The notes under the pieces: generated by a model
What the model was told of the DNA's origin: nothing
Seen by the model: the letters and a program-made list of their open reading frames with translations, nothing else
Databases searched by the model: none
Virus record (IMG/VR): IMGVR_UViG_3300049460_000134
Coordinates: 1 to 64,000 of that record
Origin: a virus
Strand: one strand, 5' to 3'
DNA: 64,000 nt
Shown here: one piece after another, positions 2,654 through 61,912 of the stretch
Numbering within the stretch: the stretch's first letter is position 1
Layout of the letters: each line of letters begins with the position of its first letter
Translations under genes and position numbers: made by a program

Positions 2654-2674
2654 GTCAGTAAAAACTGACTTACA
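2654..2674 (+). promoter_or_regulatory. Operator-like motif copy
   Basis: GTCAGT AAAA ACTGAC TTACA before gpL. Confidence 0.75.
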
Positions 2675-2701
2675 ATTTCACTTCAATCCTATGAGGTGAA
2701 A

Positions 2702-3412
2702 TTGGTCACGATCTATCAATCCGCGCAGAGCCTGACGCCTGGTGAAGCAGTCTCCCTGTTCCGTATCGACGTGTCGTCGGTCGGCGGTGGACTGCTTTAT
2801 TTCGTCCAGGGCTCGGAATTTTCCGAGAAGATCAAGTTCGGCGGTATCGAGTATCAGCCGATGGACGTCGAGTTCGATGGTCTTGAGGTGACAGGGCAGG
2901 GCGCTCTGCCATCTCCCTCGATCCGATTGTCGAATACCGACGGCATTGCCCAAGCGATGATTAACACCTTCGGCGACCTTCTCGGTTGCGAGGTGCGCCG
3001 CATTCGCACGTTTAGGCGCCACCTGGACGGCCAGCCGGACGCAGATCCTTCCGCCTTCTTTGGTCCCGACGTCTTCCTTGTTGAGCGCAAGGTCTCGGAG
3101 AACCCTGTCTACATCGAATGGGAGCTCTCGGCTTCGATCGACCAGGAAGGTCGAATGATTCCTGGTCGTGTGGCGATCCGTGACACTTGCCTCTGGCGTT
3201 ACCGCGTCTGGAGCTCCGGTCAGGGCGCCTTCGACTACTCCAAGGCGCAATGCCCTTACACCGGCAATCGCTACTACGACATCAACAACCTTCCCACCAC
3301 AGCATCAAAGGACCGTCCGTCGCGGACGCTGGCCTGCTGCAAGTTGCGCTTCGGAGAGAACGCAGCCTTGCCGTTCGGCGGCTTCCCAGGCGTCGGGCGT
3401 GTGAGCGCATGA
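2702..3412 (+). CDS. Minor tail protein L (lambda gpL-like)
   Basis: C-terminal Cys motif CLWRYR...CPYTG...CKLRFG...PFGGFPG; TTG start after GAGG. Confidence 0.9.
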   Translation: MVTIYQSAQSLTPGEAVSLFRIDVSSVGGGLLYFVQGSEFSEKIKFGGIEYQPMDVEFDGLEVTGQGALPSPSIRLSNTDGIAQAMINTFGDLLGCEVRRIRTFRRHLDGQPDADPSAFFGPDVFLVERKVSENPVYIEWELSASIDQEGRMIPGRVAIRDTCLWRYRVWSSGQGAFDYSKAQCPYTGNRYYDINNLPTTASKDRPSRTLACCKLRFGENAALPFGGFPGVGRVSA

Positions 3413-4158
3413 TCCTGACAGAAGCAATTCGCGTTGCTGCTCGCGAGCACGCACGCGCCGAATACCCGAACGAGAGCTGCGGCCTGGTCGTCAACGGTTT
3501 CTATCTGCCCTGTCGCAATGTCGCGGCCGATCCCGCGCAAGACTTCGCGATCCATCCGCAGGACCAGGTGAAGGCCTTGAGCCGCGGCAAGATTCAGATG
3601 GTGATCCACTCGCATCCGAATGGTCCAATGTCGCCTACGCAGCTCGACATGGAAGGCCAGGTCAAGTCGGGTGTTCCGTGGGCGATCATCCCGCTCGATG
3701 AGGATCGGATTGGCGAGGCGCTCATCTGGGGTGACGACACCGATATTCCGCCGCTACTTGGTCGATCCTTCGTCCACGGCATCACCGATTGCTATTCCGT
3801 CGTGCGCGACACCTACCGGCTTGGCCGCAAGGGCTGTGCTGCGCAGGGTATCGAGTGGCCGCTTGATCCGATCATTCTCGGTGAAGTGCCGCGCGGCGAT
3901 CAGTGGTGGGCTGAGGGACAGGATCTTTACTCCAAGTTCGAAGAGTTCGGCTTCCGGGCGATCAACTTCTCCGAGATCCGCCCAGGCGACGCCTTTCTCA
4001 TTAAGGTTCACTCGCAGGTTCTGAACCATGCCGGCGTGCTCGTCGGTGGCGGCATGATCCTGCAGCACTTCCCGAACCGCCTGTCTTCGCGCGTTCCTGC
4101 TGGCCTCTGGGCTCGCAACGCAAACGTCTGGCTTCGGCATGAGGCAGTCAATGCGTAA
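3409..4158 (+). CDS. Tail assembly protein K (JAB/MPN + NlpC/P60)
   Basis: EYPNESCG, HSHP..S..D, DCY and NHAGV motifs; ATGA overlap with gpL. Confidence 0.9.
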   Translation: MILTEAIRVAAREHARAEYPNESCGLVVNGFYLPCRNVAADPAQDFAIHPQDQVKALSRGKIQMVIHSHPNGPMSPTQLDMEGQVKSGVPWAIIPLDEDRIGEALIWGDDTDIPPLLGRSFVHGITDCYSVVRDTYRLGRKGCAAQGIEWPLDPIILGEVPRGDQWWAEGQDLYSKFEEFGFRAINFSEIRPGDAFLIKVHSQVLNHAGVLVGGGMILQHFPNRLSSRVPAGLWARNANVWLRHEAVNA

Positions 4159-7700: not shown

Positions 7701-9064
7701 TGGATGTTGGTCCTGACGGCACGCTGCGCGCGGTCGTTAAGGCAACGATCAACGCCAACACGGAAGATGATCTTGGCGGCTACCAGTTTCAGATCAAGGA
7801 AGATGATGGCAACTACATCACCTTCCCATCGAGCGAACCCGACTACGAATGGACGGTCACGCCTGGTCGCACCTATACGGTTCATGTTCGCGCGACCGAT
7901 CGTTACAACAATCCGTCGGACTACTGCGCTCCGGTCTCGATCGCTGCTGCGGTTGACGATGTTGCTCCGTCGACCCCGCAAAACGTCGGCGCCGTTGGCC
8001 TCTTCCGTTCGAATTGGGTGGATTGGGATCTTGTGCCTGATGCAGACACAAGCTTCTACGAGGTCGAGACCACCAAGAGCGGCCTGACGACGATCATGTC
8101 TTGCGCCGCGCCCGCCTTCATTCACTCGAACCTAGTCGTAGGCGAGGAGTGGATGTATCGCGTTCGCGCCGTCGATACCTCGGGCAATCGTTCCGACTGG
8201 TCCGAAGTGGCAATCGCAACTGTCGGCGCAATCAACCCTGGCGATCTTCCGCCTGACGCGATTATCTCCAGCTTCGCGCTGATCGACGAGGCATTCATCG
8301 AGAGTGCTCATATCGTCGAGATCGACGCCGCCAAGATCAAGGCAGGCACGGTCATCGCCGGTAACGTCATCGTGGCGACCAGTGGCGGAAATATTCCGCT
8401 GGCTGACATTGGCGCTGCTGGAGATCCGGCTGACACGATCAATCATGGCGCAACGCAGATCGAGCCTGGCAAGATCAAGATCGCCTCTGGCGTGACGCTG
8501 GCTGACTGGCGCTATGGTCCCGATCAGACGACGATCAACGGCGGCTCGATTGCAGCAAACACCATTGCAGCCAACTCGCTATCGATCGGTATGCGCGGTA
8601 TCTCGACGGACGGCCTGATCTTCGAACACAACAAGCCGGCGATCAACAACGTTTCCTGGACCGCCGGCACGGTTCGCTACATCGGCGACGATGGCAATGT
8701 AGCAACGCGTGCGATCTCGGCCGGCAGTGCCGTGTGGAGCGGCGGCTATATGTATCTGATCTGGATCAAGGGTGCCAACGCCCTGACCGCCACGACAGAT
8801 GGAGCCGTCGCGTTTGGTTCGAACGCGGTCATTCTGTCGATCTACGCAGGCGGCAAGGATCTGACGACCAACTACGGTCGCACGGTCATCGATGGCGATC
8901 AGATCAAGACCGGCTCGATCCAGGCCTCGGCGATCTCCGTAACATCGCTGTCGTCCCTCACGGCCAATATCGGCACGCTGACGGCTGGCAAGATGCAGTC
9001 CACTGATGGCCTGATGGTTGTCGATCTTGACCTTAAACGCATCCTGATTGCGGATTTAACATAG
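4742..9064 (+). CDS. Tip attachment / central fibre protein J with FN3 repeats
   Basis: GSKGGGKG start, ISEGP, WTNNPAW, several FN3-like repeats; 1440 aa. Confidence 0.92.
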   Translation: MSFHFSFENLIRGSKGGGKGKGGSSGSDASNTLRSKARARIIEAISEGPCVGLVNWDKSVYYEETPITNPDGTVNFKNVILQQRLGTPDQEHLTGFATAEIPYDVNVKVGYNTGPVQRTVIEPNATAIRAVVNIPSLASQNKKSGAIETASVSYAFEVRGYNGGWQRVVTENLVNQKTTSAVQRAHRIDLPDGGAPWDVRMVRLTPDSDNERLQNDTTWEGYAVLIEGKFIYPHTALVATEVNAEDMGNSIPARKYRFRGRIISVPSNYDPIGRIYAGIWDGTFKQAWTNNPAWIFYDILINDRYGLGEFINPETVDKWTLYQIAQYCDQMVKSGFKNADTGQDIYEPRFTFNGVLQSRQEAYKALQQITTTWRGMCYWSLGQVFATADMPADPVKLVTPANVIGGEFNYSGTAKKARSSVVLVKFNNKDNFYQPEPEPVTSDTALARFGWREKTVDLLGATTRGEAHRYGKWIIDTEENETETVEYTASWDHADVRPGDLIAVADPRKAQMRLGGRLASAGTDYVTLDQPFERAEGELYSLMIAMPDGTLHKAPVDTWADEVLDGDGNSLGFLRANLGEVLPQQPDVNTMWLGTGTDIQPRQYRVIAMSEEKKNQFKITALFHDPNKFARVEEGISLEPITYTRPKGQVAPPTGLKVREVSYVNNGRQYARLTLSWEVLNDYTVREYEVGALHPTKGYIKLGTTENSYMDLDDAEIGQYTFYVYAIGYSTQRSAPATFDYEYVGFNGLAAPSVTELKLVDNPNGTEFTGRDVMIFWKNNFPSSTSILADDASPTDEQSPFYAGNTIKVYHADNGQLLRQQLVTGSGFTYSYEMNKNDSTVAGLAHPTRKLRFEVTVSATYNRTSAQATLTVNNPVPGLVTLRAYADGKNILLNWDNPAESDFAGVKVWVEENNTFDPDATVPFYIGRNDAVIYPAKEVTIYHVRIGAFDTFDQDMLISAPLQVQTGRILDSTPPVVPTGLALESAMDVGPDGTLRAVVKATINANTEDDLGGYQFQIKEDDGNYITFPSSEPDYEWTVTPGRTYTVHVRATDRYNNPSDYCAPVSIAAAVDDVAPSTPQNVGAVGLFRSNWVDWDLVPDADTSFYEVETTKSGLTTIMSCAAPAFIHSNLVVGEEWMYRVRAVDTSGNRSDWSEVAIATVGAINPGDLPPDAIISSFALIDEAFIESAHIVEIDAAKIKAGTVIAGNVIVATSGGNIPLADIGAAGDPADTINHGATQIEPGKIKIASGVTLADWRYGPDQTTINGGSIAANTIAANSLSIGMRGISTDGLIFEHNKPAINNVSWTAGTVRYIGDDGNVATRAISAGSAVWSGGYMYLIWIKGANALTATTDGAVAFGSNAVILSIYAGGKDLTTNYGRTVIDGDQIKTGSIQASAISVTSLSSLTANIGTLTAGKMQSTDGLMVVDLDLKRILIADLT

Positions 9065-9083
9065 TCAGTCAATATTGACTTAC
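9064..9083 (+). promoter_or_regulatory. Operator-like motif copy
   Basis: GTCAGT CAAT ATTGAC TTAC after gpJ. Confidence 0.75.
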
Positions 9084-11133: not shown

Positions 11134-11154
11134 ATCAGTAAAGATTGACTGACA
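11134..11154 (+). promoter_or_regulatory. Operator-like motif copy
   Basis: ATCAGT AAAG ATTGAC TGACA before the lysis cassette. Confidence 0.75.
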
Positions 11155-15355: not shown

Positions 15356-15376
15356 GTCAGTCATTATTGACTGACA
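15356..15376 (+). promoter_or_regulatory. Operator-like motif copy
   Basis: GTCAGT CATT ATTGAC TGACA before the fibre operon. Confidence 0.75.
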
Positions 15377-47570: not shown

Positions 47571-47660
47571 TGACAAAGCACAGACTTACAATAACCGAAA
47601 GCTTCCCTGCGCGTGACGCGCTAGTGTGCGTTAACACGTTGAATTAACTAAGGAAAGAAC

Positions 47661-48008: not shown

Positions 48009-48202
48009 TGGCGACTTGGTTTGGAGTTCGAGTTGGCGCGTTGAAGAACATTTACGCGCACCGGGACGCCGGTGTGATCATAAGTGGTGCTTGGGCTGAC
48101 CGTGAATGGGTTGATGCAAGCGCTGAAGACGCCAAAGCAGACACGTCATGGAAGCTGATCGGGCGCGTTAGGATCAAAGCTCTCAAGGAGAAGGCTCAAT
48201 GA
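48008..48202 (+). CDS. Hypothetical protein
   Basis: Coupled small ORF. Confidence 0.5.
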   Translation: MATWFGVRVGALKNIYAHRDAGVIISGAWADREWVDASAEDAKADTSWKLIGRVRIKALKEKAQ

Positions 48203-48561: not shown

Positions 48562-48779
48562 TGCGTATGTGGACCCGCAAGAGCGGCTCGCAGCGCCGTT
48601 CCAAAATTCAAGCCGTCGAGATCGCACCCAATTTTTGCGGTCAGAACGGCAGTCAGAACCTCGCAATCAAAACCGAAGACGGTTGGTTGGTCCTCGAGCC
48701 TGAGAGTGAGGCCGAGACGCGCCAGCTCATGAGCACCGCGGCCATCATCTTTCGTAACTACCGGGAGCCACGCATTTGA
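48561..48779 (+). CDS. Hypothetical protein
   Basis: TAATG coupling. Confidence 0.5.
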   Translation: MRMWTRKSGSQRRSKIQAVEIAPNFCGQNGSQNLAIKTEDGWLVLEPESEAETRQLMSTAAIIFRNYREPRI

Positions 48780-50725: not shown

Positions 50726-51171
50726 TTATTCTCGACTGCCCATTTTGCTCCAAGCCGCCGATCTTCACGTCCATGCGCGATGTGGAAGACGGCTTCGATC
50801 ATTGCTTCTCGCTCGTATGTTCAGAGTGCGGAATCGAAATGACCGACGAGTATAAGGATGACCTCCTTGCGCGCTGGAATAAGCGATCGATTCCGACGAA
50901 CGCCATGCCAAGCGAGGAAGTTCTGAACGCCGGCTATGACGCGGCGCGCGATCAGAATGGTCTCCCGCCGGAAGGTCTGGTTCTCGGTCATGTCGGCAAG
51001 ATTTTCGTGGCGATGATCAATGCCGAAGTCGAAGAGCAGGTGAGCAAGCCGTCGATCCCATGCGAGCCTGATCCGGTCGGCATCTTCCATGCTTACGATC
51101 AGCCGATCGAGTATCTGCATAGCCACGATCTTCATGCAGGCGACCAGCTTTTTGTGAGGAAGGTAGCGTGA
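50722..51171 (+). CDS. Lar-family (restriction alleviation) Zn-ribbon protein
   Basis: LDCPFC...VCSECG...WNKR. Confidence 0.6.
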   Translation: MIILDCPFCSKPPIFTSMRDVEDGFDHCFSLVCSECGIEMTDEYKDDLLARWNKRSIPTNAMPSEEVLNAGYDAARDQNGLPPEGLVLGHVGKIFVAMINAEVEEQVSKPSIPCEPDPVGIFHAYDQPIEYLHSHDLHAGDQLFVRKVA

Positions 51172-51395
51172 CCGACATCGTCTACCACCTGGCACAGCTC
51201 CGGCACGCCTATGCAAAGCTGAAGGCCGGCGAGGTCATTCGCCAGGCTCAATTTGCCGATGGGCTGATCGCACCTGCGATCCGAGCCCTCGAGGAACTGG
51301 TCGATCAGCGCCACGATCATCGAGGCATGGAGCGCTGGGCTGAATACGATCCGAAGCCCTCGTTCCTTTCACGCGTTCTGAGGAGGAAGATATGA
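51168..51395 (+). CDS. Hypothetical protein
   Basis: GTGA coupling. Confidence 0.5.
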   Translation: MTDIVYHLAQLRHAYAKLKAGEVIRQAQFADGLIAPAIRALEELVDQRHDHRGMERWAEYDPKPSFLSRVLRRKI

Positions 51396-51595
51396 GCGGC
51401 CTAGAGGTCGTAGGAGCAGCCGCGATCTACATCGTGGCCGTCATCGTCGCTGGCTACATCGGCGCAGGCCTCACCGCGTTCCTCACTCGCAAGAGCGGCT
51501 TGGAAGGGCTCGCGCTGATCGTTGTCGTCCCGATGGCAATCTGGATCGTCGGCGCCATCGTCGGTCTCATCCTCCTGGGAGCGGCAATCGCGTGA
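51392..51595 (+). CDS. Small membrane protein
   Basis: Two TM helices. Confidence 0.55.
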   Translation: MSGLEVVGAAAIYIVAVIVAGYIGAGLTAFLTRKSGLEGLALIVVVPMAIWIVGAIVGLILLGAAIA

Positions 51596-51632
51596 AAAAT
51601 TCACGCAGCCCACGAATTCACTGACTATTATT

Positions 51633-51651
51633 GTCAGTAAACATTGACTGA
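51633..51651 (+). promoter_or_regulatory. Operator-like motif copy
   Basis: GTCAGT AAAC ATTGAC TGA. Confidence 0.75.
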
Positions 51652-51661
51652 AGGTTTGGAA

Positions 51662-52141
51662 ATGGCAAGAAAAACCCTTGATGAAGCCGAAAAGGCAAGG
51701 CTTCAGCGTATTGCCGACCGCATTTTCGAGAAGGTGAAGGCACTCGACGGCATCTATTACGTCGAAGGCATGCATCAGCTTCCGGTTCTGCGGCACGACA
51801 GTGAATACCGCCAGGCGCCGATCGATAGCTCGATCGAGTTCCTGCTCTCCTCCGTCCGCGTTGGCGGCCGCGGACAAATCATCTTCTGCTTCGAGCCGGC
51901 TGATAACCGTGAATTCAAGCATATTGAGGTCGAACAGCGGAAGATGGACGACGTCTTCCCTCTTTTCGGTCCCGCCTATGCTGAAGCAATCGGCTCCGAG
52001 CAAGAGAACTTCGAGGCTCTGATCAACGAGACGTCCGAGGCGCTCGAGCTTGAGGACGAAGCCGCCGAGATCCGCAAGGCTCAAGAAGCTGAAGAGGCTC
52101 TCGAAAACAATCGCAAACTCCAAAACTACGGGAGATTCTAA
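51662..52141 (+). CDS. Hypothetical protein ending NYGRF
   Basis: Acidic ORF, TAATG-coupled to the resolvase. Confidence 0.6.
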   Translation: MARKTLDEAEKARLQRIADRIFEKVKALDGIYYVEGMHQLPVLRHDSEYRQAPIDSSIEFLLSSVRVGGRGQIIFCFEPADNREFKHIEVEQRKMDDVFPLFGPAYAEAIGSEQENFEALINETSEALELEDEAAEIRKAQEAEEALENNRKLQNYGRF

Positions 52142-52734
52142 TGGCAAAGATCCGCATTGGCGGTCTCGATGGTTCGCTGCGCAACTTCGGCATAGCGAAG
52201 CTGGACTATGAAACGGACACCGGCGAGCTCGAGCTGGTTGGTCTGAAACTGATCGAGACGGAAAAGACGAAGGCAAAGCAGGTGCGCGCCTCGTCCGATA
52301 CCTATGAGCGCGCCAGGACGCTCGCGACCGAGGCAGACGCCTACCTCGAGGACTGCGATATCATCTTCGCCGAAATCCCGTTCGGCGGTAAATCCTATGA
52401 CGCCGTGCTTGGCTTCGGGATTGTGATTGGCGTCTATGGCGCGCTCTCGCTGAAGACCCCGCTGATCGAGGTCGCTCCGGCTGAGACGAAGAAGGCAGCC
52501 GTCGGCACGCGCACTGCGTCGAAGGAAGAAATGATTGCCTGGGCATTTGAGAAGTTCCCGGATGGTCCGTGGCTGCGACACGCCAAGAACGGCAAGGGCT
52601 ACAGCAAGGGCGATCCGACCAACGCAAACGAACACCTGGCAGACGGCTGCGGCGTTGCCTTTGCAGGTATCAAGACGCCGGCGTTCCGCCAGGCTGCCGC
52701 AATGCTCGCGACTTCGCTCAAGAAGGCAGCATAA
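52141..52734 (+). CDS. RuvC-like Holliday junction resolvase
   Basis: GLDGSLRNFG, FAEIP, ASKEEMIAWA, EHLADG. Confidence 0.8.
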   Translation: MAKIRIGGLDGSLRNFGIAKLDYETDTGELELVGLKLIETEKTKAKQVRASSDTYERARTLATEADAYLEDCDIIFAEIPFGGKSYDAVLGFGIVIGVYGALSLKTPLIEVAPAETKKAAVGTRTASKEEMIAWAFEKFPDGPWLRHAKNGKGYSKGDPTNANEHLADGCGVAFAGIKTPAFRQAAAMLATSLKKAA

Positions 52735-52755
52735 TCGTAAAATCAAGCCTGTTTA

Positions 52756-52776
52756 GTCAGTAAAAACTGACTTACA
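52756..52776 (+). promoter_or_regulatory. Operator-like motif copy
   Basis: GTCAGT AAAA ACTGAC TTACA before nrdB. Confidence 0.75.
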
Positions 52777-52807
52777 ATGAGCACACCTTTCACTGCAGGA
52801 GCACCGA

Positions 52808-53770
52808 ATGCTTTTCGAACGCCAGGTCGAGCGTCTGCCCGACCATTATCCGTGGACACAGGACTACATCGAAGCCATGCAGGATGGCTTCTGGACCGCA
52901 AAGAAGTTCACTTTCGACACCGACAAGACCGACTATGAGCTCAATCTCAATGAGGCTGAGCGCCAGATGGTCACGCGCTGCCTTGCAGCGATCGCCCAGA
53001 TCGAGGTCTCCGTGAAGGAGTTCTGGAAACGCCTCGGCGATCATCTTCCGCATCCTTCGATTAAGGATCTCGGGATCACGATGGCCTACATCGAGGTCAT
53101 CCATAACAACGCCTACGAAAAGCTCCTGAAGAAGCTCGGTCTGATCGACGTCTTCAAGGACAACATGAGTGTTCCGGCTGTTGCTGGGCGCGTCGGCTAT
53201 CTCAACAAGCACGGCGAGCGCGTCTACAGCGACAACCGCAAGCAATACATCTACAGCCTGATCCTTTTCACGATGTTCGTGGAAAACGTCAGCCTCTTCA
53301 GCCAGTTCTACGTGATCCTCTGGCTCAACCGCTTTCAGAACGTGCTCAAGGATGCTGCGCAGCAGGTGAAATACACGCGCAACGAGGAGCTTCTACACGC
53401 CCAGGCCGGCGCCAAGATCATCATGACGCTCCGCAAGGAATATCCGGAGCTGTTCGATCAGGAAATGGAACGCAAAATCAAGCACGAATGCCACGTCGCG
53501 TTCGGCGCTGAATGCGAACTCATCAACTGGATGATCGGCGATTTCCAGGGCGACAAGCTCAATGCCGAAGTGCTCAAGGGCTACGTTGCTCAGCGCTTCA
53601 ACGAAAGCCTCGAAATGGTCGGCTACGAGCCGGTCTTCCACGTCGACAAGTCCGTCCAGGAGGCGACCTTCTGGATGACCGAGGGGCTCTACGCTCCATC
53701 GAAGGTCGATTTCTTCCACTCTGAACCCACCGAATACGCGCAGGCCGACTCTGCGGACGACGAATTTTAA
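52808..53770 (+). CDS. nrdB: Ribonucleotide reductase class I beta subunit
   Basis: IEVIHNNAY, ENVSLFSQF, NEELLH, DFF. Confidence 0.9.
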   Translation: MLFERQVERLPDHYPWTQDYIEAMQDGFWTAKKFTFDTDKTDYELNLNEAERQMVTRCLAAIAQIEVSVKEFWKRLGDHLPHPSIKDLGITMAYIEVIHNNAYEKLLKKLGLIDVFKDNMSVPAVAGRVGYLNKHGERVYSDNRKQYIYSLILFTMFVENVSLFSQFYVILWLNRFQNVLKDAAQQVKYTRNEELLHAQAGAKIIMTLRKEYPELFDQEMERKIKHECHVAFGAECELINWMIGDFQGDKLNAEVLKGYVAQRFNESLEMVGYEPVFHVDKSVQEATFWMTEGLYAPSKVDFFHSEPTEYAQADSADDEF

Positions 53771-53784
53771 AAGGACTGAAGATT

Positions 53785-55467
53785 ATGCGACAAGATTATG
53801 CCTGGCTGAACCAGGTGGCTCTAACTACGCTCTCGCGCGGCTATCTGCGCGAGGGCATCGCGCCTGAGAACCTCAAGGAAGAGGCGATCGCGCGTGTCAA
53901 TGCCATCGTAGATCGTGCAGAAGAAATCCTCGGTTTTGAACTGCCGACGCTGCGCCTGGGCGTCAAGCGCGGTTGGGTCTCACCCGCCTCTCCGATCTGG
54001 TCGAACTTCGGCGCTGGGCGCGGTCTGCCGATTAGCTGCAACGGCAGCTTCATGGCCGACGACATGGACTCCATTCTCTTCAAGAATGCCGAGATTGGCA
54101 TGATGACGAAGGAAGGCGCTGGCACTTCTGTCTATATGGGCAAGCTGCGTCCGTTCGGCTCTGCTATCTCTGGCGGTGGACGCTCGGAAGGTCCGACGCA
54201 TTTCGCTCGGCTGCCGCAGGAACAGGTGACTGTCGTCTCGCAGGGCAACACGCGCCGCGGCAATGCAGCCGTCTACCTCGATATCGAGCATGAAGACGCC
54301 GAGCGCTGGCTGGATATGCGTTCGATCTCTGGTGGCGTGCACCATCCGATCCAGCATCTTTCGTTCGGCGTGGTCATCGGCGACGACTGGATGAACGCGA
54401 TGCTCGCCGAAGAAAAGGGCGGTCCTAAGCGCAAGCTGATGGCGAAGATTCGCAACAAGCGGCGCGAGACTGGCTTTCCCTACATTGTCTTCCGCGACAA
54501 CGCCAACAATGCTCGCCCGGAAGTGCTGAAGCGGCTTGGTCTGCTGATCTATGCCTCGAACCTGTGCACTGAGGTCATGCTGCCGTCCGGTCCCGACGAA
54601 AGCTTCGTCTGTGATCTGTCCTCGGTCAATGCGCTCTATTACCACGAGTGGAAGAGCACGCCGTTCGTCCGCGAAATGATCTACATGCTCGACGCGGTGA
54701 TGACGGAATACATCGAGAAGATCCGCGGTGTCCGGCTGCTCGCTGATGCGCTTCGCTTTGCAGAACGCTGGCGCGCTCTTGGTCTCGGTGTTCTCGGCTG
54801 GCATTCGCTGCTGCAATCGCAGATGATCGCCATCGAAAGCGATGAGGCTCGAGCGCTGAATATCGAAATCAGCGAGTATCTCGCCACCGAGTCACACGCC
54901 GCATCCCGCGACCTCGCCGAACGTCTTGGAGAGCCGGAAGGGCTGAAGGGCACTGGCTACCGCAACCTGACGGTTAATGCGATCGCGCCTACCACATCCT
55001 CGTCGATCATCTGCGGCCAAGTTTCGCAGCAACGCGAGCCTTGGACTGCAAATATCTTCGAGAACGACAATGCCAAGGGCGTTTTCACGCAGCGCAACGT
55101 GTTCCTTGAGGAGCTGCTCGAAAGCAAGGGGCGCAACGACCAGCAGACTTGGCTCTCGATCTTGCAGAATGCCGGCTCCGTGCAACATTTGGACTTCCTG
55201 ACGCAGCACGAGCGCAACGTCTTCAAGACCTTTGCCGAGATCGACCAGGCAGAGCTGATCCGTCAGACTGCGGACTGCCAGAAGTATATCGATCAGGGCA
55301 TCAGTCATAACATCATCCTGCCGCCCGAAGCGACGATGAAGGAAGATATCGATCTGATCGTGTTGGCGTGGAGAAGCGGTTTGAAATCGCTCTACTATCG
55401 CAAGGGCTTGAACAAGGCACAGGAACTGGCTCGCCAGAATGCTTCCTGCGTGGCGTGTGAGGCGTAA
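53785..55467 (+). CDS. nrdA: Ribonucleotide reductase class I alpha subunit (compact, no ATP cone)
   Basis: PISC, SNLCTE, APTTSSS, KSLYY, C-terminal CVACEA. Confidence 0.92.
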   Translation: MRQDYAWLNQVALTTLSRGYLREGIAPENLKEEAIARVNAIVDRAEEILGFELPTLRLGVKRGWVSPASPIWSNFGAGRGLPISCNGSFMADDMDSILFKNAEIGMMTKEGAGTSVYMGKLRPFGSAISGGGRSEGPTHFARLPQEQVTVVSQGNTRRGNAAVYLDIEHEDAERWLDMRSISGGVHHPIQHLSFGVVIGDDWMNAMLAEEKGGPKRKLMAKIRNKRRETGFPYIVFRDNANNARPEVLKRLGLLIYASNLCTEVMLPSGPDESFVCDLSSVNALYYHEWKSTPFVREMIYMLDAVMTEYIEKIRGVRLLADALRFAERWRALGLGVLGWHSLLQSQMIAIESDEARALNIEISEYLATESHAASRDLAERLGEPEGLKGTGYRNLTVNAIAPTTSSSIICGQVSQQREPWTANIFENDNAKGVFTQRNVFLEELLESKGRNDQQTWLSILQNAGSVQHLDFLTQHERNVFKTFAEIDQAELIRQTADCQKYIDQGISHNIILPPEATMKEDIDLIVLAWRSGLKSLYYRKGLNKAQELARQNASCVACEA

Positions 55468-55468
55468 G

Positions 55469-55711
55469 ATGAGTATTCACGTTCTCATCCGATCCAATCC
55501 ACCCTGTCCTTCCTGCCTCAAGACAAAAGCGCTCCTTGAGCGGCGCGGTCTGGCCTTCACGGCAGAAGATCACGAGACGCCGGAGAAGGTTGAGACCTTC
55601 GTCGCTGCCGGCCATCGCACCTTTCCGCGCGTCTTCATTGACGACAAGCTGATAGGTGGCTTCGAAGATCTCGAACGCCATCTTGCTTCGCTGGAAGATG
55701 ACGATTTCTGA
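55469..55711 (+). CDS. Glutaredoxin
   Basis: CPSC, TFPRVF, IGGFEDL. Confidence 0.88.
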   Translation: MSIHVLIRSNPPCPSCLKTKALLERRGLAFTAEDHETPEKVETFVAAGHRTFPRVFIDDKLIGGFEDLERHLASLEDDDF

Positions 55712-55756
55712 GAAATAGCGCTTGCGTCCCAATCGCGCATCGTTATAAATGCTCTT

Positions 55757-55777
55757 GTAAGTAAATACTGACTGACA
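55757..55777 (+). promoter_or_regulatory. Operator-like motif copy
   Basis: GTAAGT AAAT ACTGAC TGACA at the start of the ncRNA region. Confidence 0.75.
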
Positions 55778-55861
55778 CGAAAGCGATGTGTCAGTCAGTT
55801 CCAGCGATCGAAGATCAACCGCTCTACGAGGTGTCGCCTTATGAACCGCTAAGTCGGGTTT

Positions 55862-55879
55862 ATCAGTCAAAATTGATTA
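55862..55879 (+). promoter_or_regulatory. Operator-like motif copy (degenerate)
   Basis: ATCAGT CAAA ATTGAT TA. Confidence 0.55.
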
Positions 55880-55921
55880 AGAAAAAGACGTCGCCAGGAG
55901 CCGTCAGAAAATAAACCTGGC

Positions 55922-56027
55922 TCTTATGTGAGTGGAGCGCGAAGGCTGAGCTAAAGGCCTGTTGTATTCGCGATGCAGCGAAACGAGAAAACCGGATTCT
56001 CGCGTAGCGGGCTCCGCTCACATAAGA
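55922..56027 (+). ncRNA. Cloverleaf structured RNA of unknown family
   Basis: 17-bp closing stem TCTTATGTGAGTGGAGC / GCTCCGCTCACATAAGA enclosing three hairpins. Confidence 0.55.
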
Positions 56028-56097
56028 GACCTGACGAGGACTGCGGTGAAGTCTCTCGCTTACAAGCGTGGCTAGGGTTCGAGTCCCTTAAGGGTCG
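56028..56097 (+). tRNA. Degenerate tRNA-like element (pseudo tRNA-Val TAC)
   Basis: D arm GGAC-tgcggtgaa-GTCT, anticodon region CTTACAA, T arm AGGG-TTCGAGT-CCCT; mismatched acceptor stem and short anticodon loop. Confidence 0.5.
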
Positions 56098-56126
56098 CCT
56101 GTTCAACACCTACTGAGGAGAAGCGC

Positions 56127-56411
56127 ATGTCTGCCACCATTCTTGCATTCAAGCCGCGTTCTAAGCCAGAGCCGGAGTCCGTAAAGCAGCCGGCGCCTAA
56201 CCAGCTCGAGATTTCAAAGTTTGAGTGCGATCACCTCGACCGCGTGATTGATCGCGCCGTCCATGTGCTTGACGTCATCCACTCTGGTCCGGCGCTCATC
56301 AAGCAGTTCCTCGCCGGCCAGCGCACGATCGCCTCCACCGTCAAGCACGGCGGCGTCGAATACGAGCTGCAGATCAGCCTCGTCGAAAAGCATTCCCCTC
56401 GCTTCGCATAA
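56127..56411 (+). CDS. Hypothetical protein
   Basis: GAGGAG RBS. Confidence 0.6.
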   Translation: MSATILAFKPRSKPEPESVKQPAPNQLEISKFECDHLDRVIDRAVHVLDVIHSGPALIKQFLAGQRTIASTVKHGGVEYELQISLVEKHSPRFA

Positions 56412-56423
56412 TAGGAGATTCCA

Positions 56424-56669
56424 TTGCGAAACTTTCTTTCTCGCCTTTTCCGCCGCAACCAGACGATCGTCACGAACGTCTCGGTCAATCACCAGGTCAA
56501 CGTGATCCGTGATGACGCCGACTATATCGACGCGCTCGAAAACCGGATCGCCGATCTCCTGGTCGCCAACACCGACTACGTGATGCGCCTTCAGGCTCGC
56601 GGCATTCGCGTCAAGGAGCTCGAGACGGAAAACGCCGAGCTGCGCGCACAGATCCCTGTTGCGGCATAA
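56424..56669 (+). CDS. Hypothetical coiled-coil protein
   Basis: AGGAG RBS with TTG start. Confidence 0.6.
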   Translation: MRNFLSRLFRRNQTIVTNVSVNHQVNVIRDDADYIDALENRIADLLVANTDYVMRLQARGIRVKELETENAELRAQIPVAA

Positions 56670-56674
56670 CGCAC

Positions 56675-56881
56675 ATGGGGCTTTCGGCTAACGGGAAGCC
56701 TATAACGCCCTACCAAGGCTCGTGGGCATGGAAAATGGAGCAGCGCCGCAAGCTCGGCGCGCTTCGCGAGCAAGAAACCACCCTCTTCATCAATGGCAAC
56801 AATCGCGAGGCTGCAGAGCGTCGCGACGAAGCCGCAGATCTCGAAAGGAGCTTACATGGCGGACAGACGCCTAACGACTGA
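56675..56881 (+). CDS. Hypothetical protein
   Basis: Small ORF in operon. Confidence 0.45.
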   Translation: MGLSANGKPITPYQGSWAWKMEQRRKLGALREQETTLFINGNNREAAERRDEAADLERSLHGGQTPND

Positions 56882-57086
56882 AGACAGGCATACGCCGAAG
56901 TTGAAGCAGATCGCCGGTCTCATCCAGGGACTGACCTTCCGCGAAATGCAGCATATCTCGGAATTGCTGAGGGATGAGCTGCAAGTGAGCGGCTCAATGC
57001 CTGTTACCGATGCGCTGCTAAAAGTTGCCGACAATCTTCTCGGCTTCGACACGCAGACCGGAATTCCCTTTCGTTCCGCTTCCTGA
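56856..57086 (+). CDS. Hypothetical protein
   Basis: AAGGAG RBS before ATG 56856. Confidence 0.55.
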
Positions 57087-57105
57087 AACAATAAGGACAC
57101 CTCCT

Positions 57106-58101
57106 TTGACCTTTCTCATCAATGACCCTGTGACGAAGATCACCGGCGACTACAGCTTCGACGGCACGGTCGTCGCAGCATTCGACAAGCAGGACGGCAA
57201 GCAACGCTACGTCGTCGAGGACGATCGCGGCGCGCTGCATATCTACAGCGAACAGAACCTCCGGCTGATCGGCAACATGGCTGATCACCAGTATCTGCGT
57301 GTCCTCAAGAAGCTGCTCGACAAGGGCGTCTATCGCGAAGGTCGCAACGGCGGCACTTATGGTCTCTTCGGCGAACAGATGCGCTTCGACCTCTCTCGCG
57401 GCTTCCCGCTGCTGACGACCAAGAAGGTTCACTTCCACTCCATCGTCGTTGAATTGCTCTGGTTCCTCCGCGGCGAGACGAACATCAAGTTTCTGAAGGA
57501 CCATAACGTCTCGATCTGGGATGAATGGGCTGACGAGAAGGGTGATCTTGGTCCGGTCTACGGCGCGCAGTGGCGCACCTGGCCGACGATCGAGCATCAG
57601 TGCGCCGATATCTACTATCCCGGCCACATCGACCAGATCCAGAAGGTGATCGACGGCCTCAAGCGCGATTCATACGGTCGCCGGCACATCGTCTCGGCAT
57701 GGAATCCGGCTGAGATCGATGAAATGGCGCTTCCGCCCTGTCACTGCCTCTTCCAGTTCTTCGTGTCTGACAACAAGCTGAGCTGCCAACTCTACCAGAG
57801 GAGCGCAGATTGGTTTTTGGGGGTCCCATTCAACGTTGCCTCATACGCGCTGCTGACCATGCTGATTGCGCGCGAAACCGGCCTTCAGCTTGGCGAATTC
57901 GTGCATAGCTTCGGCGATCTGCACCTCTACGCCAATCACATCGAGCAGGCCAAGGAGCAGCTCACTCGCGAGCCGCGCAAGTTGCCGAAGGTGCTCATCA
58001 ATCCGGACATCGACAAGCACATCTTCGACCTGGAAGTCGGTGACGTCGCTCTCGTCAACTACGATCCCCATCCAGCGATCAAAGCGCCGGTCTCAGCGTA
58101 A
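57106..58101 (+). CDS. thyA: Thymidylate synthase with N-terminal DfrB/R67-like SH3 domain
   Basis: [41 protein letters not shown]; AAGGA RBS and TTG start add a 57-aa N-domain. Confidence 0.92.
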
Positions 58102-58139
58102 GATATCCACGCGCAACCCAACATTTCTTGCGCTATTGT

Positions 58140-58160
58140 GTCAGTAACAATTGACTGATA
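58140..58160 (+). promoter_or_regulatory. Operator-like motif copy
   Basis: GTCAGT AACA ATTGAC TGATA. Confidence 0.75.
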
Positions 58161-58185
58161 GCGCGAGCAAAGATAAGGACGATCC

Positions 58186-58389
58186 ATGTCAGAAAAGATC
58201 GACATTCACATCGACCACTACATCGCCCAGGAAGGCGGTGTTGGCTTCTACTATTCGGTGATGCCATCGACTGAGCTGTTTGGACCGTTCGAAACTGCAC
58301 AACTCGCCGCTGAAGGTGCTCTCGCAGCGCTTCAAGGGGCGATGGACGACATTGTAATGGCCGCACTCGGCATCGAAAAAGGAGAGTAA
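58186..58389 (+). CDS. Hypothetical protein
   Basis: AAGGA RBS. Confidence 0.55.
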   Translation: MSEKIDIHIDHYIAQEGGVGFYYSVMPSTELFGPFETAQLAAEGALAALQGAMDDIVMAALGIEKGE

Positions 58390-58391
58390 AC

Positions 58392-58859
58392 ATGGGCGGC
58401 ACGCTCATTGAACAGACCAAGGTTATCGTGAGCAAGGTTCACGAGAAGGCATTCATTCCGACATACGGATCTGACGAGGCGGCCGGCGCTGACCTTTACG
58501 CTGTTGTCGATGGTCCGGACGCTATCCCGGTTCCGGTCGGCGAGCGCGTGCTCGTCAAGACCGGCTTGTCGATCGAGCTCCTGCCTGGCTACGAAGCCCA
58601 GGTGCGTCCTCGTTCCGGTCTGGCACTGAAGCAGGGCATCACGGTCCTCAACACGCCTGGCACGATCGACAGCGACTATCGCGGCGAGGTTGGCGTCATC
58701 CTTTATAACGCTGGCAACCGGACGTATTTCGTCAACCACGGCGATCGCATCGCTCAGTTGGTGATTGCGCCTGTCGTGCGCGGTGTCTTCGTTGTCGGCG
58801 AACTCAGCGACAGTAACCGCGGCGAAGGTGGCTTTGGCTCGACTGGAGTTTCCGCCTAA
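58392..58859 (+). CDS. dut: dUTPase
   Basis: AGADL, RPRSGLA, GTIDSDYRGE, RIAQL, RGEGGFGSTG. Confidence 0.96.
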   Translation: MGGTLIEQTKVIVSKVHEKAFIPTYGSDEAAGADLYAVVDGPDAIPVPVGERVLVKTGLSIELLPGYEAQVRPRSGLALKQGITVLNTPGTIDSDYRGEVGVILYNAGNRTYFVNHGDRIAQLVIAPVVRGVFVVGELSDSNRGEGGFGSTGVSA

Positions 58860-59479
58860 TGCTCTACGGCATCTGCGGTGCTCATCGCAGTGGAAAAACC
58901 ACACTTGCCAAGCGCGTCGCGGAAGAACTTGGTATCGAGTTCATCGATACCTCGTTCGGCTCCATCAGCAAGGGCAAACGCAATCCGGTCGCTCCCATGA
59001 CTCTCAGGGAGCGGCTCGACATTCAGGTTCACGGCCTGGAACGCCACCTGGAGCTCATCCTTCAGGCAAGCCGGCCGGCAATCGTCGATCGCACGCCGCT
59101 CGACATGTTCGGCTATCTCCTCGCAGAATTTCACATGACCTCCGATCGCCATGCTGATGCGGACGTCCTGGAAGGAGCTGCCTACCTCGCCGAGCAATAC
59201 CTCGAGGCTGTGAAGCTCAACTACGACATGGTCTTCTTCACGGAGATCCTGCCGGTCTACGAGGTCGATACCTCGAAGCCGACGCCGCCAAACAATCGTG
59301 CCTTCCAGCTTCACCTGGACGCGATCATCCGCGGCGGTCTGCATCGGCTCCATGACGAGATCAACCATGCCGTTGTGCCAGCGATACCGCTTGCGGAGCG
59401 CGTGGAACAGGTCTCGGAACTGATCGTGGAGCGGATGAACGAAATCGACGACCAGCGCAAAGCCGTCGGATTCCACTAA
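58859..59479 (+). CDS. P-loop nucleotide kinase-like protein (AAA_28/dNMP kinase-like)
   Basis: GAHRSGKTT, VDRTPLD. Confidence 0.7.
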   Translation: MLYGICGAHRSGKTTLAKRVAEELGIEFIDTSFGSISKGKRNPVAPMTLRERLDIQVHGLERHLELILQASRPAIVDRTPLDMFGYLLAEFHMTSDRHADADVLEGAAYLAEQYLEAVKLNYDMVFFTEILPVYEVDTSKPTPPNNRAFQLHLDAIIRGGLHRLHDEINHAVVPAIPLAERVEQVSELIVERMNEIDDQRKAVGFH

Positions 59480-59522
59480 GCCACACGAAAAAGCCACGCG
59501 CATCCCAACTGCGCGTGAGCTA

Positions 59523-59543
59523 TTCAGTAATTATTGACTGACA
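59523..59543 (+). promoter_or_regulatory. Operator-like motif copy
   Basis: TTCAGT AATT ATTGAC TGACA before rIIA. Confidence 0.75.
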
Positions 59544-59575
59544 ACAAACAAGAACAGACACAAGGAGACAGAAGC

Positions 59576-61912
59576 ATGGAAGTTTCGCAGCTTGCGCAGC
59601 TCGACACACACGCCGTCATCGGCGGTGAAGATCCTGAAGCGTTCGGCATGGCTGATACTCCAGAATTCTATCAGATGCTCTCAGCCAGCATCTATCGCGA
59701 CAAGATCCGCGCAGTCGTGCGCGAGACGATCTGCAATGGCTGGGACGCGCATATCATGGGCGGCTGCACCGACAAGGCAGTGCAAGTTACACTCACGGAC
59801 GAGGAGCTTGTCATCAAGGACTTCGGTCCCGGCATTCCGCATGAGAAGATGCGGCCGATCTATTGCATCTACGGCGTTTCGACGAAGGTGAAGGATGAGA
59901 GCCAGACCGGCGGTTTCGGTCTCGGATCCAAGTCGCCATTCGCCGTCACCGATCACTTCTCCGTCGTCTCGTGCTTTGCAGGCACACGCTCTGTCTATGC
60001 CATCTCTCGCGGTGGCAAAGCTACAAGCGGCAAGCCTGACATGCGCCGCATGGTCGCCGTGCCGACAACCGAAAGCGGCGTCACTGTCACGGTCCCGATC
60101 AAAAAGGAAGAGCGCGAGAGCTTTGCCAAGCACATTCGCGCCGTTGCAAAGCAGGGCGGCATGCTGGTGACGCTGAACGGCGAACTTCTGGAGCGCTTCG
60201 ATTACGAGGAGGCGCGCAAGACTGAGTTCTGCGTCGTCGCGCCTCACTGGATGCACGAAAGCCGCATCTATACGCTCTACGGCACCGTCCTCTATCCGGT
60301 GATGACGACCGACCCTGATATCTCCAAGCTGACACGCGATATCGAAGGCCTGATCGGCTACGGCTCGACGCTGGTTATCGTTGCCCCGCCGAATTCAGTC
60401 GAAGTCACGCCGTCGCGCGAGTCCCTCTCTTTTACGGATGGAACCACCGACACCATCAAGCGGCTGCTCGACAAGGCATGCACGCGCATCAGCAAGGCAA
60501 TTCCGGCAGCTACTAAGCTCGCTGTCGATGCACGCGTTGCAAAGAACGGCCGCCTAGCGCTCGCGAGCAAGATCCACGCGATCAGAGAGGTGCCTGAGAA
60601 GGTTCTCTCCAGTGCGCTCGCGATCGCCGAGCACGCCGTCCGCTCGAATCCTGATAACCATATCCAGTATGATCGACAGCGGCGCCTATGCCTTCAGGCA
60701 GCGCAGCGACTGTTCAAAGATGATCGCCGCACCTTCCGCCGTGCGCTGAAGCGTGGTTACAACGCTGGCGAGGACAGCTTCAAGGCGTCGAGCAAGCCGC
60801 TCATCCGCATTGCCTCGAAGATGGGCATGCTGAAGGATGCGCACCTCTTCAACATCTACGCCTATCGCTACCAGACGATCGGCTCCAAGACCAATCCGCT
60901 GAAGGAGCACGACACCGGGGTCGTTAGGCCTGTCCTTTGCGTGGCGCGCAATCTGCGCGATCTGCGACCGACGATGAGCGGTGCAAGCAGCGGTTTTCCG
61001 CCGGACAAGGATAGCTTCATCGCCGGCCTGGTCATGCGCCAGTGGACTGCGGAGCGCCTGAAGCAGCTTCGCGCGCTCGCCGAGCACTACAAGCTGAAGC
61101 TGGTCATCTTCGATTACGAAGCAGCGAAGAAGCCGAAGAAAGCACCGGTCAAGCGCGAAAAGATCGTCGACAAGTATTTCGCCCTTGGTGATTTCAGGGG
61201 AACGACTTGCGAAACGGCAAACCTCGAAAATCCGAAATACTTCCTGATGAGCTTTGCGCGCGAAGGCATGCGTTCGCCCTTTCAGGATGAAGGCCATCAA
61301 TACCACCACCTTCTTGCGAAGCGCTATCCGGAGACGGCTGTCATTTCGTCCAAGACAGACGCTGAGAAGCTGATGAAGCGCGGCGCAGTCAATCTGACCG
61401 GTGTCATTGCCAAGCGCATTGCGGAGCTCGCTGGGGTCCGTGAGGTCCAATACGCTTACGCGATCCGCGAAGGCCTGATGTGCAACGGCAATTATCACCA
61501 CTACCCATCAGACCTGGCCATTTCGTTCGCCAAGCTCGACATGCGGATTGCAAAGCGCCTGTTCCCCGACAAGGCGACGCCTGGCGCTCTCGCTGAAGAA
61601 GGCTTGCTTCTGAACGACGTGATGAACTCGCTGCGGCTCGATTATCAGGACCGCAACTGCGGCGGCAATGAAGCCAAGCTCAAGATCTGGACGTCTGCGA
61701 GAGAGACCTACAAGGCCATGACCACGTCATATGCCGACCAGAAATTCAGTTACTTGAGCGTCCTGGCAGGCATCAGAGTTACCGGCGGCATCAAACGCAA
61801 GATCGATGATCTCCACGACATCATCGTCTTTTTGCAGGACCGCGAGAGTAAGTCAAAATTGACTGAATCCCTTTTGAACCCAATTGCTAACGCCCAGAAG
61901 GAGGCAGCATGA
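59576..61912 (+). CDS. rIIA-like protein (GHKL ATPase N-terminus)
   Basis: RETICNGWDAH, DFGPGI, GGFGLGSKSPF, PSRESLS. Confidence 0.85.
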   Translation: MEVSQLAQLDTHAVIGGEDPEAFGMADTPEFYQMLSASIYRDKIRAVVRETICNGWDAHIMGGCTDKAVQVTLTDEELVIKDFGPGIPHEKMRPIYCIYGVSTKVKDESQTGGFGLGSKSPFAVTDHFSVVSCFAGTRSVYAISRGGKATSGKPDMRRMVAVPTTESGVTVTVPIKKEERESFAKHIRAVAKQGGMLVTLNGELLERFDYEEARKTEFCVVAPHWMHESRIYTLYGTVLYPVMTTDPDISKLTRDIEGLIGYGSTLVIVAPPNSVEVTPSRESLSFTDGTTDTIKRLLDKACTRISKAIPAATKLAVDARVAKNGRLALASKIHAIREVPEKVLSSALAIAEHAVRSNPDNHIQYDRQRRLCLQAAQRLFKDDRRTFRRALKRGYNAGEDSFKASSKPLIRIASKMGMLKDAHLFNIYAYRYQTIGSKTNPLKEHDTGVVRPVLCVARNLRDLRPTMSGASSGFPPDKDSFIAGLVMRQWTAERLKQLRALAEHYKLKLVIFDYEAAKKPKKAPVKREKIVDKYFALGDFRGTTCETANLENPKYFLMSFAREGMRSPFQDEGHQYHHLLAKRYPETAVISSKTDAEKLMKRGAVNLTGVIAKRIAELAGVREVQYAYAIREGLMCNGNYHHYPSDLAISFAKLDMRIAKRLFPDKATPGALAEEGLLLNDVMNSLRLDYQDRNCGGNEAKLKIWTSARETYKAMTTSYADQKFSYLSVLAGIRVTGGIKRKIDDLHDIIVFLQDRESKSKLTESLLNPIANAQKEAA
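61848..61866 (+). promoter_or_regulatory. Intragenic operator-like motif upstream of rIIB
   Basis: GTAAGT CAAA ATTGAC TGA within the 3' end of rIIA. Confidence 0.65.

Follow-up and report, generated by a model that had tools for sequence, protein, structure and literature searches.

Dispersed palindromes as candidate operators of a small XRE protein in a phage-plasmid of the RHEph10/pLM21S1 family

The first 64,000 nucleotides (nt) of IMG/VR virus record IMGVR_UViG_3300049460_000134, hereafter the window, harbor numerous copies of one short palindrome, and the question raised by this array is which molecule reads it, and to what effect. The full record is 115,555 bp in size with a G+C content of 57%, carries nearly all of its genes on the plus strand and is a member of the RHEph10/pLM21S1 phage-plasmid family. 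We consider the palindromes to be double-stranded DNA operators of an element-encoded regulator, most likely the dimeric form of a 139 amino acid XRE protein with a Cro/CI-type helix-turn-helix (HTH) domain, a reading to which we assign a probability of about 0.52. That the sites behave as duplex-DNA sites for an element-encoded, two-fold symmetric protein is supported by the findings presented below, while we infer that the XRE protein is the binder, that repression is the effect of binding and that it serves the maintenance of lysogeny.

Form, number and placement of the palindromes

The initial annotation of the window described a directional 21-bp pattern, composed of two overlapping dyads and present in about 22 copies genome-wide. 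At up to two mismatches, this pattern yields 29 strand-matches in the window, as compared to 0.01 expected from shuffled sequences. The unifying site is, however, a single 20-bp dyad, GTMAGTMA-N4-TKACTKAC, usually flanked by a T and an A to give 22 bp. Each arm consists of a tandem GTMA-GTMA, which creates the impression of a second dyad offset by 4 bp, and this 4-bp periodicity rules out the latter as a separate feature. The number of copies likewise required revision, with a scan of the whole replicon for the 20-bp dyad returning 45 good copies, as opposed to ~1.5 expected, and 24 exact matches. Across the 45 sites, positions T2, A4, T6 and A8 and their mirrors T13, A15, T17 and A19 are near-invariant, while position 7 is occupied by A in 27 sites and its mirror, position 14, by G in 39.

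A copy is present at every coordinate initially listed for the window. Twenty of these are good copies, defined here as matching the 20-bp dyad with no more than three mismatches, while the remaining three (34031, 55862 and 29010) are partial, weak and doubtful, respectively. The copies in the window are:

2654 to 2673, plus strand: dyad without mismatches, 8 nt past the upstream stop codon and 28 nt before the start of a minor tail gene.
9064 to 9083, plus strand: dyad without mismatches, over the stop codon of a 1440 amino acid tail/host-specificity gene, with the next start 25 nt further on.
11134 to 11153, plus strand: dyad with one mismatch, identical in sequence to 30713.
15356 to 15375, plus strand: dyad without mismatches and a near-perfect palindrome, ahead of the tail-fibre gene block.
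19678 to 19697, minus strand: dyad without mismatches, its asymmetry opposing the flanking plus-strand genes, ahead of a PhoH-like gene.
21354 to 21373, plus strand: dyad without mismatches, with the start of the DnaB-like helicase gene 17 nt past its end.
23855 to 23874, plus strand: weak copy with three mismatches in the left arm, the right arm lying over a -35-like hexamer and a -10-like TATAAA following 17 nt on (read by eye).
29010 to 29029, plus strand: doubtful copy within repC, which passes only at three mismatches and is probably due to chance.
29804 to 29823, plus strand: dyad with one mismatch, in the gap between two divergent genes, RHH and XRE, over a -35-like hexamer of the likely XRE promoter.
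30439 to 30458, minus strand: dyad without mismatches, reversed, between the XRE terminator and a conserved gene for a 73 amino acid protein.
30713 to 30732, plus strand: dyad with one mismatch, with the start of the CobT-like gene 14 nt past its end.
33997 to 34016, plus strand: weak copy with three mismatches, its right end over a -35-like TTGCAT, before the CobS-like gene.
34031 to 34050, plus strand: partial copy (left arm and inner right arm, without the outer right arm), across the -10-like position of the promoter at 33997.
40725 to 40744, plus strand: dyad without mismatches, past dnaE and a 178 amino acid gene, with the next start 17 nt after its end.
43855 to 43874, plus strand: dyad without mismatches, within the 3′ end of the upstream open reading frame, with a RecA/UvsX-like gene 27 nt on.
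46438 to 46457, plus strand: 20-bp dyad without mismatches, 7 nt past a -10-like TATAAC, before the SbcD-like gene.
51633 to 51652, plus strand: dyad with one mismatch, with the next start codon 9 nt past its end.
52756 to 52775, plus strand: dyad without mismatches, before the ribonucleotide reductase genes, identical in sequence to 2654.
55757 to 55776, plus strand: dyad without mismatches, 7 nt past a -10-like TATAAA.
55862 to 55881, plus strand: weak copy with four mismatches to the 20-bp dyad.
58140 to 58159, plus strand: dyad with one mismatch, past the thymidylate synthase gene and 2 nt past the word GCTATT.
59523 to 59542, plus strand: dyad with one mismatch, with the start of the rIIA-like gene 33 nt past its end.
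61848 to 61867, plus strand: dyad with one mismatch, within the 3′ end of the rIIA-like gene, with the rIIB-like start 41 nt on.

The reported identity of distant copies was confirmed for the pair 11134 and 30713, and for two further pairs that have a third member outside the window: the sequence shared by 21354 and 55757 recurs at genome position 97583, and that shared by 2654 and 52756 at 103860.

The sites are spaced at a median of 2.35 kb across the replicon and 41 of the 45 are intergenic, with non-coding DNA making up 15% of the genome (p = 4e-29). The array thus combines a copy number far above chance with a concentration between genes, as expected of dispersed operators. In agreement with the initial annotation, the sites precede units for tail, replication, recombination and nucleotide metabolism functions, to which the rII-like units can be added. 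Five of them (2654, 9064, 19678, 43855 and 61848) directly follow a stop codon or occupy the final codons of a gene, which represents stoperator-type placement. Both the type and the position of the site before the CobS-like gene (33997) are conserved in relatives, and RHEph10 contains a site at the position equivalent to 43855. The proposed directionality of the motif was also borne out. The upstream arm mostly carries A at position 7, while the downstream arm retains the C-type base, and on this basis there are 28 sites oriented with transcription and three (19678, 30439 and 106547) opposed to it (p = 5e-6).

Twenty-eight of the 45 sites end 9 to 50 nt ahead of a start codon with a Shine-Dalgarno sequence. 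Along with the strong orientation bias and predicted folds of down to -12.7 kcal/mol for some copies, this would suit an element that acts in RNA, as a stem-loop in the 5′ leader which stabilises or processes the downstream message or controls its translation. The folding properties of the copies make such a role very unlikely. The mean folding energies of the sense and antisense strands are equal (-5.45 and -5.70 kcal/mol, respectively; p = 0.90), predicted stabilities range from -0.4 to -12.7 kcal/mol with many poor copies (-0.4 to -1.2 kcal/mol), and perfect 8-bp arms occur in just two of the 45 sites. Furthermore, compensation is absent at the pairs 3/18 and 7/14: T18 accompanies A3 in two of nine sites and C3 in nine of 35, while A7 is combined with T14 once. 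Across distant relatives it is the sequence that is conserved and not the pairing, which accords with a protein reading two half-sites on duplex DNA.

The initial annotation further placed many copies just after or across a -10 box, or over a -35 box, and proposed a geometry of repression. By eye, a -10-like word can be observed 0 to 7 nt upstream of 40725, 46438, 51633, 55757, 58140 and 59523, while 23855 and 29804 overlap a -35-like hexamer, and 33997 and 34031 bracket one promoter-like stretch ahead of the CobS-like, sigma factor and dnaE genes. A -10-like word is present within 17 nt upstream of 17 of the 45 sites, compared to 11% of control intergenic windows (p = 2e-6). Scored crudely as promoters, 16/45 sites and 6% of random windows attain a value of at least 13, a figure inflated by the TTGAC inside the dyad. 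These examples and the -10-like enrichment uphold the proposed placement in part, with moderate statistical support, while a strict scan of positions 40001 to 60000 for sigma-70 promoters and terminators, for which the consensus is that of E. coli, gave no hits beyond the chance level and none at the sites.

An alternative to lysogeny operators is that the sites serve the lytic programme, as sites for an activator or timing factor or as parts of promoters read with a phage sigma factor. The element encodes a putative factor of this kind:

35349 to 35981, plus strand: sigma-70-family phage factor (Pfam Sigma70_r2, E = 1e-5; phrog_351, E = 1.7e-13).

Only region 2 was detected in this protein. 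Its gene, flanked by dnaE and the CobS-like gene, is kept in the Rhizobiaceae relatives, while no homologue was found in a Betaproteobacterial Cupriavidus plasmid or in the Pseudomonas phage phiK7B1. The orientation of the sites with transcription, their proximity to gene starts, the resemblance of the dyad centre to an A/T-rich -10 element and the original isolation of many family members as plaque formers all accord with a lytic role, which we nonetheless judge to be distinctly improbable. Sites at or after the -10 occupy the positions of repressors, not those of class I or class II activators, and sigma factors do not read promoters by two-fold symmetry. The distance between the sites and promoter words also varies (12, 21 and 29 nt from the TTGCAT hexamer; 0 to 7 nt from -10-like words), which is easier to reconcile with an operator than with a promoter element. 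Finally, the Cupriavidus plasmid, in which no sigma homologue was detected, has sites; the SSU5-type E. coli phage-plasmid Cyrano also has sites, but was not searched for a sigma homologue. The sigma factor is thus unlikely as the binder.

The word GCATCCCAA is present in four exact copies (window positions 34015, 46405 and 59500; genome position 64470), as compared to ~0.9 expected, at distances of 7 to 24 nt upstream of a palindrome, while copies with one mismatch (21287, 55724 and 58113) are found up to 58 nt upstream. All of these copies are on the plus strand, at the -35 position of promoter-like stretches ahead of DNA-metabolism genes. The word may mark a promoter subclass, perhaps one read with the phage sigma factor. 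It was rejected as a general second motif, as at one mismatch 25 copies were found where 24.9 are expected, and there is no enrichment.

The XRE protein and rival binders

If the palindromes are operators, the genes around sites 29804 and 30439 hold the principal candidates for the binder:

29948 to 30367, plus strand: XRE protein (Cro/CI-type HTH) of 139 amino acids, candidate repressor (Pfam HTH_3, E = 0.0024; phrog_8, E = 2.4e-5).
30398 to 30428, plus strand: intrinsic-terminator-like hairpin and T run directly past the XRE stop codon, read from the sequence.
29229 to 29426, minus strand: ribbon-helix-helix (RHH) protein of ~65 amino acids, rival binder, divergent from XRE and upstream of repC, its start chosen by alignment to relatives.

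Membership of the XRE protein in the five-helix HTH_3 group is evident from its structural model together with its match to phrog_8, a family of transcriptional regulators, the Pfam match alone being sub-threshold. The AlphaFold model (predicted local distance difference test, pLDDT: 90.6) comprises a five-helix Cro/CI-type domain followed by three more helices. It superimposes on 434 Cro with a root mean square deviation of 1.7 Å over 62 columns (TM-score by target length: 0.77) and on C.AhdI at 1.5 Å, with every Foldseek E-value above 0.001, while a profile search against PDB sequences produced only weak HTH matches (E ≥ 0.02). Modelled as a homodimer, the protein attains an ipSAE score of 0.62, compared to 0.00 for the best control, through a symmetric interface formed by residues 103-139 that leaves the HTH domains free. 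Of 30 proteins solved as pairs, 20 attained this mark, as did one of 23 solved as single chains. The dimer runs had at least 63% of contacts in common, with a partner pLDDT of at least 76. The models therefore support the prediction that the XRE protein forms a homodimer.

As initially annotated, the XRE gene is flanked by copies of the palindrome, with 29804 upstream on its likely promoter and 30439 past its terminator. Given the terminator directly past its stop codon, XRE would constitute a unit of its own. Of 63 distinct relatives, 50 have a site in the 300 nt ahead of the XRE start, where ~15% would be expected by site density and ~30% per gene gap, and 28 have one in the 150 nt past the XRE stop. 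The two are also jointly absent from phiK7B1 and jointly present in the Cupriavidus plasmid, further linking the sites to XRE. Protein and site also appear to covary, in that in 16 of 17 loci replacement of the P in the KLPLD loop after the recognition helix by A or S coincides with an A at position 7 of the half-site, which is suggestive of a link to the XRE protein at the sequence level. In two IMG/VR loci with shifted half-sites, L122 and L111, the recognition helix itself is altered (PSILSTLK and QNMISQLK instead of N..SM.K). Cyrano encodes a counterpart of the XRE protein, CYRAN_45, which is listed as a putative master repressor and for which transcription in the lysogen exceeds the local background 10-fold (PMC9928086, Table 1). 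Furthermore, mitomycin C does not induce pLM21S1 (PMC4447125), which fits a repressor without a LexA-type cleavage domain.

Several findings weigh against the XRE protein as a repressor acting at these sites. Its match to Pfam HTH_3 is under the gathering score (18.3 vs 23 bits), and phiK7B1 is the sole clean lineage free of both XRE and sites, while the 65 IMG/VR relatives were fetched via the XRE protein, so that co-occurrence of protein and site is built into that set. The covariation of residue and half-site rests on approximately two independent changes on the XRE tree, which leaves a sign test powerless, and locus L040 forms an exception to it. Relatives with an altered recognition helix are only modestly sparser in sites (0.19 vs 0.29 sites per kb; p = 0.012, uncorrected for relatedness), with some of them keeping sites. 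The XRE gene is transcribed in the direction of the lytic genes, while it is the RHH gene that lies on the maintenance (repC) strand. A symmetric dimer leaves the 28:3 orientation bias unexplained. Finally, the promoters were read by eye, with the strict sigma-70 scan giving none at the sites.

The RHH protein is a serious rival as binder. Were this protein, or the 73 amino acid protein encoded at 30480-30701, to bind the palindromes, these would still be operators, and XRE would be a Cro-like partner or unrelated. The RHH gene adjoins XRE in all annotated relatives, on the strand of repC, and the 20-bp dyad, the half-site centres of which are ~12 bp apart, is equally suited to an HTH dimer and to an Arc/Mnt-type tetramer. 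Arc and Mnt bind operators of ~21 bp as a dimer of dimers, and the RHH protein could do likewise. The gene for the 73 amino acid protein, which has no family match, is bracketed by sites 30439 and 30713. We consider binding by either protein to be unlikely. The β-strand residues of the RHH protein do not track the site class, as Shinella groups with the GTCAGTCA-type phages and yet has TAAGTAA-type sites, and site 29804 is ~380 nt from the RHH start. The family match of the RHH protein is weak (MazE-like, E = 0.004), and small RHH proteins next to rep genes usually control that operon only.

With the XRE protein as binder, each N-terminal HTH domain would read one GTMAGTMA half-site, while the C-terminal helices (residues 103-139) would hold the dimer. 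In the plasmid (carrier) state, XRE would occupy the ~45 sites that head nearly all transcription units. Where a site covers the -35 or the -10/start region, the promoter would be occluded, while in short gaps and gene ends within operons the bound dimer could present a roadblock, similar to a stoperator. A site on its own promoter and a terminator of its own would render the XRE gene self-regulated, and allow it to be on while its neighbours are off. The initial proposal that such a regulator acts instead of a cascade is unsupported, because the element also encodes the sigma-70-family factor (35349-35981); a cascade may exist beside the repressor and late genes could still need one.

In the phage RHph_N1_15, a deletion of 1 nt in a CCC run at approximately codon 30, before the HTH domain, splits XRE into two frames (L083:1390-1575; record 61810-62207), while the gene is intact in the siblings N1_10 and N2_6. 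Either the isolate is defective in its repressor, and thus of the clear-plaque type, or the deletion is a sequencing error in the homopolymer.

Distribution among relatives and comparison with known systems

The site array is shared by a large family and is not peculiar to this genome. Sites of the GTCAGTCA type are present in RHEph10, RHph_Y2_11, Pararhizobium p5 and Methylobacterium pAMS5a, while pLM21S1 contains 34 sites of the variant RTAAGTAA-N4-TTACTTAY, and the TAAGTAA type is found in B1VFA, Shinella, RHph_X66 (29 exact core sites) and pRlX6 (24). Among 65 IMG/VR loci found via the XRE protein, 59 contain the core T.AGT.A-N4-T.ACT.A, with a density that reaches 0.8 sites per kb. Positions 3 and 7 are variable among relatives, and shifted half-sites are present in four loci (AATCA in L151 and L023; AATAAA in L122; AGTGA in L111), those of L151, L023 and L122 having been recovered by exact-dyad count. 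A de novo k-mer search in the relatives with few sites gave counts dominated by codon bias. Beyond the Rhizobiaceae, the Cupriavidus plasmid combines an XRE protein with 13 exact sites, and 12 related sites are present in Cyrano, compared to one in the control. A search of genome contigs with the single XRE protein produced no match, while a narrower XRE alignment recovered one Rhizobium draft contig. Two distant relatives with CobS-like proteins (41% identity), the low G+C IMG/VR contigs L152 and L153 (~107 kb and 72 kb in size, respectively), both with full 10-kb flanks, have no XRE homologue and no strict core site in the ~21 kb concerned.

The element also encodes ParA and two ParB_N-domain proteins, the genes for the latter being located at genome positions 97633-98391 and 98560-99231. 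Dispersed centromere sites occur in N15, and KorB of RK2 has 12 dispersed operators, such that the palindromes could be parS-like or KorB-like sites for the ParB_N proteins, or else sites of a host nucleoid or regulatory protein. Taken together, these options are extremely improbable. The distant lytic relative phiK7B1 keeps homologues of both ParB_N proteins (44% and 39% identity) and has neither an XRE homologue nor a site, which disfavours the ParB/parS alternative that the initial annotation had named as a potential refutation. In pLM21S1, the ParB_N genes are located 3.9 kb upstream of the terminase large-subunit gene. The ParB_N proteins are thus unlikely as binders. A host factor is likewise unlikely, as 201 genomes of the Rhizobiaceae, the host family, yielded four single exact matches, compared to 24 in this phage, and a 7.3-Mb Rhizobium genome contains no site at up to one mismatch.

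Dispersed repressor sites are well known from other elements. In P1, one repressor, C1, acts on many operators across a plasmid prophage of ~100 kb, its own gene included. The operators of P1 are asymmetric 17-mers and C1, which is unrelated to XRE proteins, is supplemented by Coi, Lxc and a second immunity region. The present element resembles P1 in being a plasmid prophage with scattered putative operators that include one at the candidate repressor gene, and differs in its symmetric 20-22 bp site and XRE candidate. Cluster A mycobacteriophages (L5 gp71, TipsytheTRex repressor) contain more than 20 repressor sites in promoters and short intergenic gaps, and share with the present array the many dispersed sites, the orientation following transcription and the occurrence of site variants among related phages (PMC9283540, PMC6550527). 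Their sites are asymmetric 13-mers bound by a monomer with two DNA-binding domains, unlike the 20-22 bp dyad and the modelled-dimer HTH candidate observed here. Of the strict features of Cluster A stoperators, the orientation is found in the present array, while the asymmetric 13-bp site and monomeric gp71-type repressor are not, and no Cluster A repressor is among the listed fold matches of XRE. The array therefore falls outside both the P1 C1 and Cluster A families, the sites of which are asymmetric and the proteins unrelated.

A dyad of 17 bp occurs in more than 30 copies, many of them intergenic, in Cluster O mycobacteriophages, for which lysogens are not known and the function and binder of the dyad are not established (PMC4351075). 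Approximately one third of the Cluster O copies are intragenic, and they are not tied to translation starts (PMC4351075), unlike the sites described here, which lie near gene starts in an element that carries plasmid maintenance genes. A further parallel in layout is provided by Cyrano, with a related half-site (TAAGTA...TACTTA) and a CYRAN_45 HTH domain sharing 37% identity with that of the XRE protein. The SSU5-type elements are, however, enterobacterial and have other replication genes, while half-site positions 3 and 7 are preferentially C in the present lineage. In Cyrano (L154, record 40829-44053), the XRE homologue is divergent from genes for a small hypothetical and a CobT-like protein and abuts an integrase gene, whereas in the element studied here XRE and the CobT-like gene run in the same direction, the module having been rearranged between the lineages.

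A broader and rather doubtful reading would unite these elements under one homologous repressor-operator system. It would span a phage-plasmid superfamily of the Alpha-, Beta- and Gammaproteobacteria, including the RHEph10/pLM21S1, Cupriavidus, Acinetobacter AB group and SSU5/pMT1/pHCM2 types. Heteroimmune groups would be set apart by the C/A switches at the two variable half-site positions, together with substitutions in the loop that follows the recognition helix, and an orientation-dependent block of elongation would make the sites a palindromic counterpart of stoperators. The principle, as embodied by P1 C1 and L5 gp71, is textbook knowledge, and what is gained is breadth and a testable candidate binder, not a new mechanism. 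No description of a palindrome network in RHEph10/pLM21S1 or SSU5-type elements was found in the literature searched. If one small repressor does read ~45 sites, it would provide a simple handle on the silence of 100-kb phage-plasmids, and the immunity groups of Rhizobium phages and plasmids would be predictable from sequence. A testable switch of one protein and one site would then operate in a family that extends to SSU5-type plasmids of clinical relevance in E. coli, Klebsiella and Acinetobacter.

Gene content of the element

The placement of the element in the RHEph10/pLM21S1 family follows from its gene content and order. RHEph10 and pLM21S1 are the archetypes of a group of plasmid-like prophages of the RepC type (PMC4447125, PMC5537653), and a gene for this initiator is present in the window:

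27959 to 29068, minus strand: RepC plasmid replication initiator (Pfam RP-C, E = 1.7e-37).

The gene order repC, RHH, XRE, CobT-like, CobS-like, sigma factor and dnaE is that of the relatives, and ParA and tail genes are also present. The dnaE region shares 75-79% nucleotide identity with RHEph10, the Sinorhizobium phage-plasmid pLM21S1, Pararhizobium p5 and other Rhizobium phages, as well as with non-mobilizable plasmids of 115-119 kb in Pararhizobium, Rhizobium, Shinella and Methylobacterium. Products confirmed in the window comprise tail/host-specificity proteins, PhoH, a DnaB-like helicase, primase, ligase, RepC (minus strand), the XRE HTH protein, CobT-like and CobS/MoxR-like proteins, the sigma-70-family factor, DnaE, the single-stranded DNA-binding protein SSB, an exonuclease, and RecA/UvsX-like and SbcCD-like proteins, along with ribonucleotide reductase, ThyA and rIIA/rIIB-like proteins.

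Two of these products, SbcD-like (46449-47570) and SbcC-like (48776-50725), correspond to the subunits of a palindrome-specific nuclease, in a genome with 45 short palindromes. The dyads are probably too short to serve as substrates of SbcCD. Genes for rIIA-like and rIIB-like proteins (59534-63279) are also present in this phage-plasmid of the temperate type, with sites before the rIIA-like gene and within its 3′ end, ahead of the rIIB-like gene.

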